Source: Eledone cirrhosa
Taxonomy: Eukaryota
Assembly (NCBI GenBank): GCA_964016885.1
Contig: OZ024747.1
Span: 67,766,001-67,830,000, forward strand
Length of the DNA: 64,000 bases
Reading direction: 5' to 3'
This document shows, piece after piece, positions 3,481 through 58,515 of this stretch. The notes under the pieces were generated by a model that saw only the letters and a program-made list of their open reading frames with translations, was not told the DNA's origin and searched no databases. The first letter of the stretch is position 1; every line of letters begins with the position of its first letter. The translations under genes were made by a program, and so were the position numbers.

Positions 3481-3930
3481 TAAACAAATAGTAAAAAGGA
3501 AAAAAATTCAGTAGAAAATACTGGAGAGGTTTTTTTCAGTATAATATCAAAACATTTATTTATAAAGTGGGTATTTCCGCATTTAATAATGGTACCGGTT
3601 TCAGCATTATATGCTTTTTCAACTTCGCCTTCTCCTCCTCCTTTCCCTCTCCCCCCTCTCCCTAACTACTCCTCTCTAAATATTTATGTAAAAACTAATA
3701 ATTTTTCTTCCTGTTTTTATTATTCGTATAAATATTCAACTTAACTGCATGATGCACACCCGCCGTTAAAAAAGCATACAATGCTGAAACCGGTACCTTT
3801 ATTAAATGCGGAAATACCCACTTTATAAATAAATGTTTTGTTATCAGACTGAAAAAATCTCTCCAGCATTTTCTACTGAAATATTTCCTTTTTACTATTT
3901 GTTTATCACTCGTGTGTTACTTTTCTACAA
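3481..3930. mobile_element. Fold-back PLE-type pLTR remnant (arms about 3481-3623 and 3765-3906) with degenerate hammerheads
   Basis: About 140-bp diverged inverted repeat; TTGAAAA-agcat/atgct-GAAACCGGTA on the minus arm, G5 mutated on the plus arm. Confidence 0.65.
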
Positions 3931-4115
3931 TCTCTCTCTCTCTCTCTCTCTCTCTCTCTCTCTCTCTCTCTCTCTCTCTCTCTCTCTCTCTCTCTATATA
4001 TATATATATATATATATATATATATATATATATATATATATATATATATATATATATATATATATATTATATAAAATTAACAAAGAAGCCTTTAATACAT
4101 CAAAAGTCTTTATTA

Positions 4116-4156
4116 GCTGACAATGTTTCGTCCCGTTTATTAGGACTCATCAGAGC
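4116..4156 (-). ncRNA. Type I hammerhead ribozyme motif
   Basis: Reverse complement of 6162-6202. Confidence 0.8.
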
Positions 4157-5749
4157 AAGGAAAAAGACAAGAAATATCAACGGCCAGAACAAGCCAAAAC
4201 TCCGAAGAACAGCGAATGGATATTTATGAAAATTTAGGAAAATTATCATGGAAAGACATGTTAAACCTAATAGGGTGCATTTGTAAATAAAGACTATAGG
4301 GCAAGAGAGCAAGCAAGACATTAAACAAACCCACGTTAAAAGTACAATGTAAGTCGAATACTTGAAATACAACATAGTAATACAATACGGGAAATAAGGT
4401 GTAAAAACTATAATGTAATATACAATACAATATAGTACATAATACAGAAATAAAACTTAATATATATATATATATCTACACTCACTCCGACACATATATA
4501 TACACATTTACACATACACATAATAACACAAATATAAATATAAGCATTATAATATAATAATCACCCTGACGGTGTGATTAAACAATACCAAAATCAATGA
4601 AAATAATATATTGAAAAAATAATATATTGACATTAAAAAAATATATATAAATTCATGTTACGTAGCATATAAAGTCAACAAATTATGTATAAAAACATAA
4701 TGTATTTCACAGGGTAAAAAATAATAATAATACCATATAATAATATGAAGTATGGTGAAAAAAAATATATGTATATATATATAATAGATAATAGACAATA
4801 AATATACGGAGATATAGGCAGTTCAAATCCATATAATATTACATATTAATATTTCAATACCAGACACATACATATAATTCAAAAACATATAATATAATAT
4901 TACATATTAATATTTCAAAACCAGACACACAATATCAAGGGAGAAAGTTTAAAGCATATTTACACGATAAAATCATGGACACAAGTGACAGAAGAAAGAA
5001 AATACAGACAGCATGTGGTAGCAAAGCAAAACGAAAACAAAAACAAACACAAACACAAAATCACGTAGGCGCAACAAACTGTTAGGTAAAAATAAAAGAT
5101 ACAACTATTCAAAATCAAAAAATTGAATTGAAACCCTTATTAATTTAATTAATCTTATAATAGTGGAATAAACATTATGGGGCACTTCATATAGAATAAA
5201 ATTTAAGTCACCAATGCCGATAGAGATCAAGATATTTCAACAAATGAGCTACTACATTAATCGAAGATATATTAATCTCCGTCGTGGTTACTCGGGTAGA
5301 CTACATTATAAAGATGACAGCCTTGAAACGACTCCGATTACCCATAGTAACGTGATATCCCACAATATGGCCTTTAATGGGGGTAGAAAACATAGGAATT
5401 ATAGAAATTTTATAGATAAATCCAAACCGCACCCTACGTATAACAACCGCAATAGTAATTATAATAGTGTGCCTAATGGTACACATTTTGAGCTTAGTTT
5501 TAATGAACAGGATAGACATTCTGAACGTACACCCAGTGGTAATGGTATAGCGGTTTCTACTAGTGTTAATTCAATTGGTCCTCACATAATATAGCATGGT
5601 AATTTACATATAAACAATCTTTGTATGTAAATTACCATGCTATATTATTATAATGGATGTCAAACCACTGTGGATCAATATATACATATGTTTCTATATG
5701 TCTCTTGCGTTGAAAAGGAGGTCAAGTATGTTAAAAATCACTGAATAAT

Positions 5750-5796
5750 TGCTCCGAAGACTACAAACCTCGGTTTGGAAGAAACAATTGTAAGCA
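5750..5796 (+). ncRNA. Hammerhead motif, U4C core variant
   Basis: tgct-CCGAAGA-..caaacc/ggtttg..-GAAA-CAATTG-TA-agca; homologous to 31096-31142. Confidence 0.65.
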
Positions 5797-6161
5797 GATA
5801 AATGATTTAAACAGAACTTTGTTTCATGTATTCTCTCTCTCTCTCTATATATATATATTAAGTTTTATTTCTGTATTATGTACTATATTGTATTGTATAT
5901 TACATTATAGTTTTTACACCTTATTTCCCGTATTGTATTACTATGTTGTATTTCAAGTATTCGACTTACATTGTACTTTTAACGTGGGTTTGTTTAATGT
6001 CTTGCTTGCTCTCTTGCCCTATAGTCTTTATTTACAAATGCACCCTATTAGGTTTAACATGTCTTTCCATGATAATTTTCCTAAATTTTCATAAATATCC
6101 ATTCGCTGTTCTTCGGAGTTTTGGCTTGTTCTGGCCGTTGATATTTCTTGTCTTTTTCCTT

Positions 6162-6202
6162 GCTCTGATGAGTCCTAATAAACGGGACGAAACATTGTCA
6201 GC
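6162..6202 (+). ncRNA. Type I hammerhead ribozyme motif
   Basis: gct-CTGATGA-gtcc/ggac-GAAA-C-att-G-TC-agc: canonical core, GUC site, followed by AATAAA. Confidence 0.8.
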
Positions 6203-6433
6203 TAATAAAGACTTTTGATGTATTAAAGGCTTCTTTGTTAATTTTATATAATTTTTCGGCTCTGTTGGATAACATTGAGCTATATCTTATCCTGTCATTT
6301 CTCTTATACGACGATTGCGTTTAACTCTAATGCACTCAAGTATTTTTATCTTATATATATATATATATATATATATATATATATATATATATATATATAT
6401 ATATATATAGAGAGAGAGAGAGAGAGAGAGAGA

Positions 6434-55597: not shown

Positions 55598-55770
55598 AGA
55601 GAATTAGTATATTTACCAACATATGCGTACAGATGTACACTAATGCTAGCAAATACATAAGTTATGTCATAGTACCTAGGTGGTTCAATGCAGGAGGATG
55701 CAGAACAATTATATGAAAGACGTAAAATAAGAAAATTTTCAAAAATTAAAAATCAACTTACTTACTAAAA
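55598..55770 (-). mobile_element. PLE-type tail fragment with covariant tail hairpin
   Basis: Minus strand tttcatataatt-GTTC-TGCA-tcctcc-TGCA-TT-GAAC. Confidence 0.5.
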
Positions 55771-55932
55771 TATATATATATATAAATATATATATATATA
55801 TTTATACATATATATATAAATATATATTTATATATATATATATATATATATATATATATATATATATATATATATATATATATATATATATATATATATA
55901 TATTATAGTTATACATATATATATATATTTAT

Positions 55933-56275
55933 ATTGTTATACTTGGGGAGGGTCATATTTGTGTAATATTGCCAGAATTAATAACAGAACACACTCACTG
56001 TTTGGTTGGTTTTCGCTTCTCGCTGTCTTTTATATCGGTAATCTAACTTACTCGGTCCTCAAATGTTGCCATTGACTGACCGACGGTCAAAAATAATACA
56101 GATACAATATAGACACAAACACATATATATAGGTTATCATAAATCTTTCGTTGCACATCTGCAACATCGTCAGTGGTGTTATATTTTCCTCCTGTTGTGT
56201 TGTATGTCTACGCCATTTTTATTCAGTCTGTCTATATATATAAAAAACCTCGCAAAACTAATTCATTGCCGCTAT
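55933..56275 (-). mobile_element. PLE-type pLTR fragment with partial hammerhead (56146-56173)
   Basis: Minus strand CTGACGA-(t)gttgca/tgcaac-GAAA; end shared with the 8490 element. Confidence 0.5.
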
Positions 56276-56789
56276 ATATTTATACATATATATATATATA
56301 TATATATATATATATATATATATATATATATATATATATATATATATATATATAGTTATATATGTATATAGTTATATATGTATATAGTTATATATGTATA
56401 TAGTTATATATATGTATATAGTTATATATATGTATATAGTTATATATATGTATATAGTTATATATATATATGTATATAGTTTTATATATATATATAACTA
56501 TATACTTATATATAACTATATAAATATATAACTATATAACTATATAAATATATAACTATATAAATATATAACTATATAAATATATAACTATATACATATA
56601 TAACTATATACATATAAAACTATATATATATATATATATATATTTATATATATATGTATAAATATATATATATATATATATATATATATATATATATGTA
56701 TAAATATATATATATATGTATAAATATATATATATATGTATAACTATATATATATATATATATATATAACCATATATATATATATATAT

Positions 56790-57203
56790 GGAATGTGTCC
56801 GTTGAACAATCAGTGTCTTGAACGCAACATAATATACAAATGTACTATCGAATCGGATAGACAGAAGTGGTACTATGTGGGATCTACAGCCACCTCCTTC
56901 AAATCACGCCTTTATAGACATCGTTACTCGATAAAACATGCAAACTAGCGTTATGTAACGACAGTCGCAGACAAGGCTTGGCAGCTGCGTGAAAATAACC
57001 AACAATTTAACCTAAAATGGGATCTAATAGTGTCTGCCCCTCCATAATCCCACGGACAGGAATTTTGTAAATTATGTAATATGGAATTATTTTGTATTAT
57101 GAAATCCCAAAACATTTTATTAAATAACAGAATAGAGCGATCGTTATACTGTAACCATCGCTTAAAATCTACATTTTCATATTACAAATACTACCAGGAT
57201 TGA
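56790..57203 (+). pseudogene. Second Naiad-type GIY-YIG endonuclease fragment (5'-truncated PLE; UTR extends to about 57840)
   Basis: [37 protein letters not shown], with two in-frame stops; CTGAAGA at 57672 and GAAACATATGTC at 57769 in the UTR. Confidence 0.85.
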
Positions 57204-58299
57204 ACGCCTGTCTCCATCTCCGTTTGATTGTCAAAATACATATTAACATTCTCTATTAGTCTTAATTCTATCAACTCTTCTATTATTTACCATTTAATAT
57301 AAACTGCTATAGATAAAAGATTTCTTAATTCAATTCCCTAATGCATATACCAGCTGGCTACTAGCATTGATGTTATTCAGTAGCAGTCGAAATCTCCCCC
57401 TTCCTTAATTGACACTTTATAAATTAATACTACTACACCAAATGACCAGCCCTGTCCATTGTTCAATTGGTCAAGTATAGATTAAAATAGGCACTCCCAA
57501 AAATTCTTATTTAGATAAAATAAACCATTTACTCATTAGAAACCCTTTATATACTTGTTTAGCAGTAAATTGGATTACCATCTGTCATATACTATCACCC
57601 CTCTTCTTCCTCTATTACAACTAATATAAATACATCAATTTTTATGATTTTTTCCAATTTATCCAAAATCTCTGAAGAAGTGACAACTGATTATACATTT
57701 GCTATCGAATACTTGCTAACATTATATGATTACGCAAGCAGCGATACATAGGTATTCCGTCTGTTACAGAAACATATGTCAATACCTAATAAATTCCCTT
57801 TTTTTTAAAAAAAGCACTTTCATTTTATATTCATCTTTTCTCTCTCTCTCTCTCTCTCTCTCTCTCTCTCTCTCTCTCTCTCTCTATATATATATATATA
57901 TATATATATATATATATATATATATATATATATATGTATAACTATATATATATATATATATGTATAACTATATATATATATATATATATATGTATAACTA
58001 TATATATATGTATAACTATATATATATATATATATATATATATATATGTATAACTATATATATGTATATATGTATAACTATATATATATATATATGTATA
58101 ACTATATATATATATATATGTATAACTATATATATATATATATGTATAACTATATATATATATATATATATGTATAACTATATATATATATATATGTATA
58201 ACTATATATATATATATATATGTATAACTATATATATATATATAACCATATATATATATATATATATATATATATATATATAACCATATATATACATAA

Positions 58300-58515
58300 C
58301 TATAGAACAGTGGAAGGTAATATTCGTAGTGGTAGAGCACTCAGTCCATGGGACGAGTTAGGTAGAAGTGGTTACACAACAGTTAGTTCACCATACCGAG
58401 AACAATTGTTTCACCTTAGCGGATCCTCAGCTCGACATGTCCATTACGAGCTGAGGATCCGCTAAGGTGAAACAATTGTTCTCGGTATGGTGAACTAACT
58501 GTTGTGTAACCACTT
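58300..58515 (-). mobile_element. Minimal fold-back element: 69-bp perfect arms (58366-58434 and 58447-58515), hammerhead on each strand, tail on the left
   Basis: cgag-CTGAGGA-tccgctaaggt-GAAA-CAATTG-TT-ctcg at 58447-58484 and its mirror; tail hairpin at 58339-58358. Confidence 0.8.

Follow-up and report, generated by a model that had tools for sequence, protein, structure and literature searches.

Head-to-head fold-backs in the Eledone cirrhosa genome as probable 5'-truncated insertions of Penelope-like elements primed from both target strands

The window analysed here is a stretch of 64,000 nucleotides (nt) of contig OZ024747.1 (contig C7 in our numbering) from the 3.0-Gb, repeat-rich genome of Eledone cirrhosa, and all coordinates are window positions. 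It contains seven fold-backs, each made of two inverted arms with a tail on one side only and with TA/GA/CA flanks. A sequence-only reading of the window had proposed that one such plan recurs at very different sizes within (TA)n tracts; all seven indeed exist with a one-sided tail, and TA-rich flanks were confirmed for each of them. Six were recovered by a self-BLAST search of the window run after masking simple repeats, which placed the arms of the 3481 fold-back at 3483-3623 and 3765-3903 (91% identity) and those of the 4066 fold-back at 4068-4459 and 5859-6250 (100% identity). The same search found arms of 93% identity in the fold at 6434-6744, of 96% at 58367-58514 and of 70% at 17561-17735, as well as a perfect 1402-bp palindrome without any spacer at 29784-31185. 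The remaining case, at 8490-8780, was missed by BLAST and added by pairwise alignment, which gives arms at 8488-8596 and 8633-8736. The seven fold-backs represent seven different repeat families, G (3481), B (4066), A (6434), H (8490), I (17541), C (29784) and D (58300), for which a first-look search returned 1745, 1313, 3090, 944, 310, 858 and 250 candidates, respectively, numbers that are search candidates and not copy numbers.

We refer to the outer end of the tail-less arm as site 2 (position 0) and to the tail end as site 1 (+164 in family C). The family C copy begins with an inverted, tail-less arm of 702 nt (29784-30486, minus strand), whose outer end is site 2 and which is 99.3% identical to the 3' end of the full-length copy L151. 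It overlaps at the apex by 4 bp (CCGG) with the sense arm (30483-31185, plus strand), which carries a hammerhead variant with a CCGAAGA core at 31100, mirrored at 29869, and is followed by a 164-nt tail ending at site 1 (31186-31349, plus strand) with a hairpin, hairpin 1, at 31189-31222. A 13-bp target duplication encloses the whole insertion. An unplaced contig, C1107, duplicates window positions 8600-25500 in part at 100% identity, and a 200-N gap lies near 26430; the 29784 element was not found in the 9 kb of C1107 that were examined. In the 4066 element the fold-back stands, but the spacer previously assigned to it is mostly a longer inverted arm reaching approximately 5284. This tail-less arm of family B (4066-5284, minus strand) covers about 1.2 kb of 3' untranslated region and has a canonical minimal hammerhead at 4153, and the sense arm with its 101-nt tail (5846-6351, plus strand) has a canonical hammerhead at 6165 and hairpin 1 at 6259-6280. 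Between them lies a complex junction (5285-5845, plus strand) of 305 nt from inside the family B open reading frame (ORF; 94% to L353:3067-3371) and then a C-related piece, which ends at its own tail-less site (in the self-BLAST search, 5671-5831 is 75% like 31018-31177). This is either a multi-jump junction or a later rearrangement.

The family A fold-back, delimited by self-BLAST and copy comparison, consists of an inverted, tail-less arm (6434-6580, minus strand) and a sense arm that starts at the modal inner end of the family (-167) and continues into a tail of about 76 nt (6578-6820, plus strand; hairpin 1 at 6748-6772). Family D lies in the other orientation, with the sense arm and a tail of about 64 nt on the minus strand (58300-58433; hairpin 1 at 58339-58358) and the inverted, tail-less arm, reaching -82, on the plus strand (58435-58518). 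The family G fold-back (3480-3930, plus strand; arms 3480-3623 and 3765-3906) ends in a tail of about 33 nt with a partnerless RCTC. Family H (8488-8780, plus strand) has a tail of about 45 nt, a Neptune-type parent and no RCTC hairpin, and the family I fold-back (17457-17744, minus strand; arms 17543-17636 and 17660-17744) is old, its left-side tail being deduced from homology.

Where parents of these fold-backs were traced, they are Penelope-like elements, as had been expected of them. The family C parent, L151, is a 4198-bp unit with an 846-aa ORF, to which the window copy is 99.3% identical. The motif VIY..YVGST at residue 697 marks a C-terminal GIY-YIG domain. Full-length coding parents of families A and B keep the same domain order and have the same CxCx5C linker (6/6 A and B parent loci), and family D adjoins, downstream, a matching GIY-YIG endonuclease frame. 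The family C ORF contains RWR at 38 and DKT at 123, matching the RWK motif and the DKG-to-DKT change of the Hydra clade, and CNCRANRTC (CxCx5C) at 678; it has no CX2-5CxxC and a single Cys in the GIY-YIG core, so there is no CCHH. A CxxC (CNLCILE) is found in L151, and a CxH is absent from L151 but present (CRH) in a frame at window positions 314-1744. A hammerhead in the pseudo-long terminal repeat (pLTR) and insertion into (TA)n were also found, the family C core being a U4C variant and that of family A degenerate. A Pfam search of the family C ORF gave neither a reverse transcriptase (RT) nor a GIY-YIG match, and the Hydra assignment rests on motifs. Judged by these, families A, B and C are Hydra-clade Penelope-like elements, that is, new members of a known clade with an already known fold-back architecture. 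They share with the clade, as described in the part of PMC8557442 available to us, a single ORF with RT followed by GIY-YIG, the RWR/RWK, DKT and CxCx5C motifs, the lack of CCHH, the pLTR hammerhead and (TA)n insertion. They differ in unit length (4.2 kb versus less than 3 kb), in tail length (64-164 nt versus 30-40 nt) and in the terminal CxH, which the family C ORF lacks.

Neptune/Nematis had been considered as the clade and was dropped once the motifs fitted the Hydra definition. Family H, in contrast, agrees with Neptune on motifs only: its parent L223 has the broken frames CTNRKCIICK..C and YSI.C....C...YIGET, with DKSG, corresponding to a C-terminal endonuclease, a CX2-5CxxC linker and two Cys in the GIY-YIG core. 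Parents of families G and I were not found. Mobilisation by Naiad-like enzymes, suggested earlier, was not supported. Naiads resemble the elements described here in (TA)n preference, inverted copies and tails, as far as the part of PMC8557442 on which we draw describes them, but do not fit the parents because the Naiad endonuclease is N-terminal, with a CxC linker, and canonical hammerheads are lacking, whereas the parents have a C-terminal GIY-YIG with Hydra motifs and hammerheads are present; no Naiad parent was seen among the traced fold-back families. Sequence nearly identical to positions 3300-4600 of the family C locus L151 occurs in sequencing runs labelled as four different organisms (word shares 0.33-0.75), which might reflect related species or recent transfer. 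The window also holds another Hydra-like endonuclease 3' fragment (56790-57830, plus strand) and a second family H piece (55935-56275).

A descriptor for an RCTC-stem-bulge-GAGY hairpin gave 7 matches in the window versus a shuffle mean of 0.71. The claim that the inverted repeat ends at a fixed position relative to this hairpin was borne out, as the offsets to RCTC match the sequence and hold across the genome. The RCTC at 3908 has no GAGY partner within its tail of about 33 nt. The sequence beyond site 1 is visible only in tandem copies, since genomic copies stop at site 1. In such copies, the parent leader runs hammerhead, site 2, hairpin 1, tail, site 1, a second hairpin (hairpin 2) and ATG. 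In family C, the sequence past site 1 reads TAT-TAACT-GCTC-CATATCG-TT-GAGC, with the ATG 20 nt later, and echoes hairpin 1 after site 2, and in family N, found at neighbouring loci, a GCTC..GAGC follows site 2 at a distance of 2 nt and site 1 at 3 nt. For families A and B, hairpin 2 was predicted from the tail end plus RCTC..GAGY, and 4/6 and 2/2 pattern matches, respectively, proved to be such a hairpin, those of family A all being followed by a Hydra-like ORF; reversed control patterns gave none. A second hairpin thus lies just past the tail end in four families (C, N, A and B), so that both ends are hairpin-marked. The offset from the end to RCTC is 2-9 nt in the families measured, and the closing pair covaries across families (GCTC..GAGC or ACTC..GAGT), with differing inner stems. 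Within the part of PMC8557442 that we could use, the Hydra-1_Ajap consensus from a sea cucumber has two such hairpins before the ATG and the Hydra-2_Amil consensus from a coral has one after the hammerhead. Neither twin hairpins nor two-ended priming is described in that part. In addition, an RCTC..TT-GAGT hairpin is present in further families at 52578-52720, 11072-11152 and 2948-2971 (all minus strand) and at 59860-60478 (plus strand); the last represents the 3' end of family P, of which there are young copies of full length with frames of about 758 aa.

We mapped 32 family C insertions, six of which were chosen because they looked tandem, and their outer ends lie at site 2 or site 1. Seventeen insertions carry complete arms at both sites, and in six more site 2 is represented by a stub of about 4-22 nt. 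No insertion has the same kind of end twice; eight lack a second arm and one has an end beyond the stretch examined. In this family, the youngest one, 16/18 inverted arms with a known outer end stop within 2 nt of one site. Unlike ends were also seen in 40/46 family A head-to-head rows (three like and three unclear, one locus supplying two rows) and in 16/17 family D pairs. Among loci sampled by their tails, those with an inverted piece have an inverted arm that terminates 0-12 nt short of hairpin 1 in 19/21 cases in family A, 6/8 in family B and 15/20 in family D (29, 29 and 30 loci examined, respectively); some of the exceptions are arms that are broken into two pieces or truncated at the edge of the locus. 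Long sense copies end at site 2 in 7/20 family D loci. Short-read contigs of another run end in TA exactly at the two family C sites (9 and 7 contigs), and the strand-switch joints of family C are present in raw reads. That the fold-backs are assembly or long-read artefacts is barely conceivable: the 100% identity within the 1402-bp palindrome would agree with such an origin, but its 13-bp target duplication, the 5-30% divergence between the arms of older copies and the TA-joined ends at both sites together with strand-switch joints in short reads of other samples speak against it. Rare insertions are tailed on both sides (L012, L013 and L037/L060).

The two arms of a copy often differ in length. 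Of 19 family C pairs, 11 have a tail-less arm that extends beyond the other, 6 show the reverse and 2 have arms of equal reach; at L236, the tail-less arm measures 2966 nt and the other 15 nt. The tail-less arm is the longer one in 9 family A, 5 family B and 10 family D pairs, versus 11, 3 and 5 pairs with a longer tailed arm. Apex junctions show an overlap of 0-4 nt or up to 13 extra bases, and the apex position is private to each copy where family A and other copies were compared. The two arms of a copy nonetheless come from one source: 24 mirrored variants, 15 of them private, were counted in family C versus 1.6 expected, with 10 one-arm-only variants in 7602 sites, and 39 in family A versus 4.1 expected, with 148 one-arm-only variants. 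The arms end within 30 nt of each other in 7/19 pairs versus 1.0 by permutation, and these 7 pairs are of both polarities (inverted arm longer in 3, sense arm longer in 2, equal in 2). The target duplication of family C is uninformative in 17/31 insertions with pure-TA flanks; among the 14 informative copies it is 13 bp in 7, 15 bp in 2 and absent in 5. The site-2 start is repeated at the flank in five family C copies (TATATGAAA twice), a sixth carries a variant of it and one has several internal repeats. At L153, L155 and L081, short start-site repeats also occur inside the tandem copy and at site 1, resembling telomerase-type stuttering.

Based on these data, we propose that the fold-backs are 5'-truncated insertions of several endonuclease-bearing Penelope-like families, probably made by two reverse transcriptions that are primed by the two strands of a cut (TA)n target and then joined head to head. 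Two complementary DNAs (cDNAs) joined at their inner ends would be the simplest reading of the arm data together with published work on a Poseidon protein from Anolis (Frangieh et al. 2024, PMC11167929). That protein, a predicted dimer, is reported to nick both strands and extend each of them, and its two internal start sites mark the limits of a tail. To this end, a pair of enzymes would nick the two strands approximately 13 nt apart, and each 3' end would pair with a small number of U/A bases that directly precede a hairpin, to be extended towards the RNA 5' end, sometimes after slipping back and priming again; the repeated site-2 starts may reflect realignment of the primer on a terminal TATA. 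The two cDNA ends could then anneal over 0-4 nt and copy each other to give the second strands. In short copies, both reactions would run off the RNA 5' end just ahead of the hammerhead. For longer copies, the template would have to be either circular or a tandem read-through RNA, unless a template jump takes place. Because hairpin 2 is found only ahead of the ORF, one of these three is also required for long copies that end at site 1. A circle has been proposed in PMC4209133, and genomic data cannot separate the three options.

Telomerase is known to realign its primer. As a more tentative idea, which is possible although we would not favour it over its negation, one might speculate that in Hydra-type elements the duplicated leader hairpin docks two RTs on a single RNA, with the two strands of a cut staggered by 13 nt as their respective primers, that the primers realign and repeat as in telomerase and that the cDNAs prime each other. 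The abundant mini fold-backs would then be integrated pairs of strong-stop products, and a jump or a circular template would be required for full-length copies.

The hammerheads enter the proposal as predicted ribozymes, that is, descriptor matches. The descriptor gave 6 matches in the window versus 0.18 in shuffles, and among the fold-backs it was passed by the 4066 and 29784 elements only. Hammerheads as part of the common plan can thus be retained for these two, while the other fold-backs fail the descriptor; by eye, the 58300 element has a CTGAGGA core, the 3481 element a U3-A8-type core on one arm and the 6434 element a degenerate one. No hammerhead was seen among the 150 of 478 Rfam matches listed, all of which were microRNA or snoRNA models on simple repeats below the gathering score. 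In family A, the furthest arm ends at -164 to -171 in 31/46 rows, a set biased by 28 best-match copies, and inner ends fall in this interval in 11/23 tail-anchored pairs; 21 short-read contigs of another run end loose at the pile-up base of this family. Inner ends also cluster at -65 to -84 in family D and near -75 in family N. All three clusters are located a short way upstream of hammerhead stem I, where the sequence is CCAGT-, CCAT- or TTAGTT-like and resembles an initiator element, and they likely mark the RNA 5' end. The hammerhead cleavage site was considered as the source of the inner ends and rejected, as the pile-ups (A about -168, D -65 to -84, N about -75) are upstream of stem I and not at the predicted cuts, which were counted by eye at about -53 in family A and -34 in family D. 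A U3-A8 hammerhead match at 37296 follows a frame for an endonuclease and RT of a long interspersed nuclear element (LINE) at 35333-37339 (plus strand) and may lie inside another fold-back insertion.

Several observations weigh against the proposal of two primed cDNAs. The loci were sampled as top-scoring matches and not as random draws, and the unlike site-1/site-2 ends and variable inner ends are observed, but priming, action as a dimer and the RNA start are deduced from sequence. Three family A pairs have like ends, 5/14 informative family C copies lack a duplication, and duplications are unreadable in the other families because the flanks are pure repeats. Family C has no sharp inner-end pile-up. 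A second hairpin was not found for family D, for which 20 loci and two patterns yielded no tandem copy, or for family G by pattern search; family P has hairpin 1 and an ACTC 9 nt after site 1 without a GAGY partner, family H ends without an RCTC hairpin at either site, and the hairpins are weak folds singly (z -0.07 to -1.9). Near-equal arms and mirrored variants are also expected from snap-back or from later gene conversion, and the latter could add to the mirroring.

Snap-back, in which a cDNA primed at the tail end folds on itself and copies to a fixed stop before hairpin 1, with asymmetric arms arising by later apex deletions, had been the original suggestion, and self-priming is also proposed in the part of PMC3846280 available to us. 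Perfect or near-perfect palindromes and private variants common to both arms fit this explanation, which we nevertheless regard as unlikely. Snap-back cannot yield a tail-less arm longer than its template unless deletions follow, and it is weakened by the tail-less arm being the longer one in 11/19 young copies, by up to 2951 nt. Moreover, site-2 stubs face multi-kb sense arms, the flank-side repeats of the site-2 start look like re-priming, long sense copies can end at site 2, and both sites are marked by one hairpin motif.

A different possibility is that priming from both ends is right but that the starts are set by TA microhomology and protein binding, the hairpins serving another purpose such as translation or RNA stability. 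In its favour, a few T/A bases are present at both sites, one or both hairpins are missing from families H, G and P, and the folds are weak. We consider this quite improbable, since many other TATA words in the same RNAs are unused as ends, RCTC follows within the narrow offset given above in the families measured, and the closing pair covaries as G..C or A..T across families. Slightly less probable still is that the short elements are non-autonomous ribozyme families, similar to retrozymes or miniature inverted-repeat transposable elements (MITEs), which spread as ready-made hairpins. The large number of family A candidates, with many copies of nearly one length, would agree with this, but the apex differs among copies, the arms are more alike than the copies are, coding parents carry the same leader and no short tandem arrays were seen in the loci read. 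The private apices and full-length coding parents also speak against the separate class of non-coding mini-elements that the sequence-only reading had envisaged. Non-LTR retrozymes, as described in the part of bioRxiv 10.64898/2026.07.22.740005 that we could consult, likewise have type I hammerheads related to those of Penelope-like pLTRs, but they are tandem non-coding units without a coding parent, whereas the copies here are head-to-head stubs of coding elements with private apices; membership in this group was therefore rejected.

Compared with known systems, canonical Penelope-like insertions with an inverted, 5'-truncated pLTR share the head-to-head arms, one-sided tail, target duplication and partial tandems, going by the portions of PMC3846280 and PMC8557442 at our disposal. 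There, the structure is attributed either to self-priming or to an intermediate that the endonuclease resolves, whereas the copies described here suggest that two cDNAs were primed separately. Opposite-strand hammerhead pairs 100-700 bp apart were already noted in the available part of PMC4209133. Anolis Poseidon shares the AT-rich target, the two starts that delimit a tail, the nicking and extension of both strands and the predicted dimer. It differs in that both of its starts lie in one AC-rich stem-loop of the ORF (available part of PMC11167929), whereas in the present families the starts are in the 5' leader, where each precedes an RCTC..GAGY hairpin of its own and has a few bases in common with the target. 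The fold-back architecture and two RT start sites are thus published, and no paper was found on the twin hairpins: a literature search, with subscription journals outside its coverage and sources seen in part, found nothing on twin hairpins, on twin priming or two-primer integration, or on strong-stop products in Penelope-like elements. A comparable process is LINE-1 twin priming, in which both target strands prime cDNA on one RNA and the products are joined by microhomology. In LINE-1, each cDNA is copied from a different part of the RNA and there is no fixed second start, whereas the cDNAs proposed here overlap, which results in a palindrome.

Penelope-like elements are the closest relatives of telomerase, and the way in which their inverted ends, tails and second strands are produced is presented as open in PMC8557442 and PMC11167929. 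What the present analysis adds is mechanistic, namely paired hairpin signals, evidence for priming at both ends, a 13-bp stagger and run-off ends. With exact RNA signals and their offsets, the length of the stagger and an intact young element at hand, a two-primer model could be tested directly. Genome-writing work would also have an interest in a retroelement for which short, portable RNA signals suffice to write on both strands, and palindromes of this kind should be annotated as truncated insertions and not as MITEs, microRNA genes or a new class of element.

The beginning of the window (1-3463, plus strand) is occupied by a 5'-truncated Hydra-type element with a broken RT-thumb/CxCx5C/GIY-YIG frame at 314-1744, a hammerhead at 3279, an ACTC..TT-GAGT hairpin at 3383-3402 and a tail that ends in TA. 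Two non-LTR retrotransposon fragments (6991-8305, plus strand, and 62311-64000, minus strand) are 96% identical, with a zf-RVT match and (CATA)n flanks. A repeat of about 592 bp lies in (CATA)n at 9835-10426 and 40755-43365, with three head-to-tail copies at 41453-43365, and a 35-bp tandem array of 118 copies (95% identity) extends over 46002-50131. Finally, a dispersed repeat of about 170 bp that resembles a short interspersed nuclear element occurs in many copies (14534-14800, 16328-16507, 19509-19677, 21621-21835 and others).

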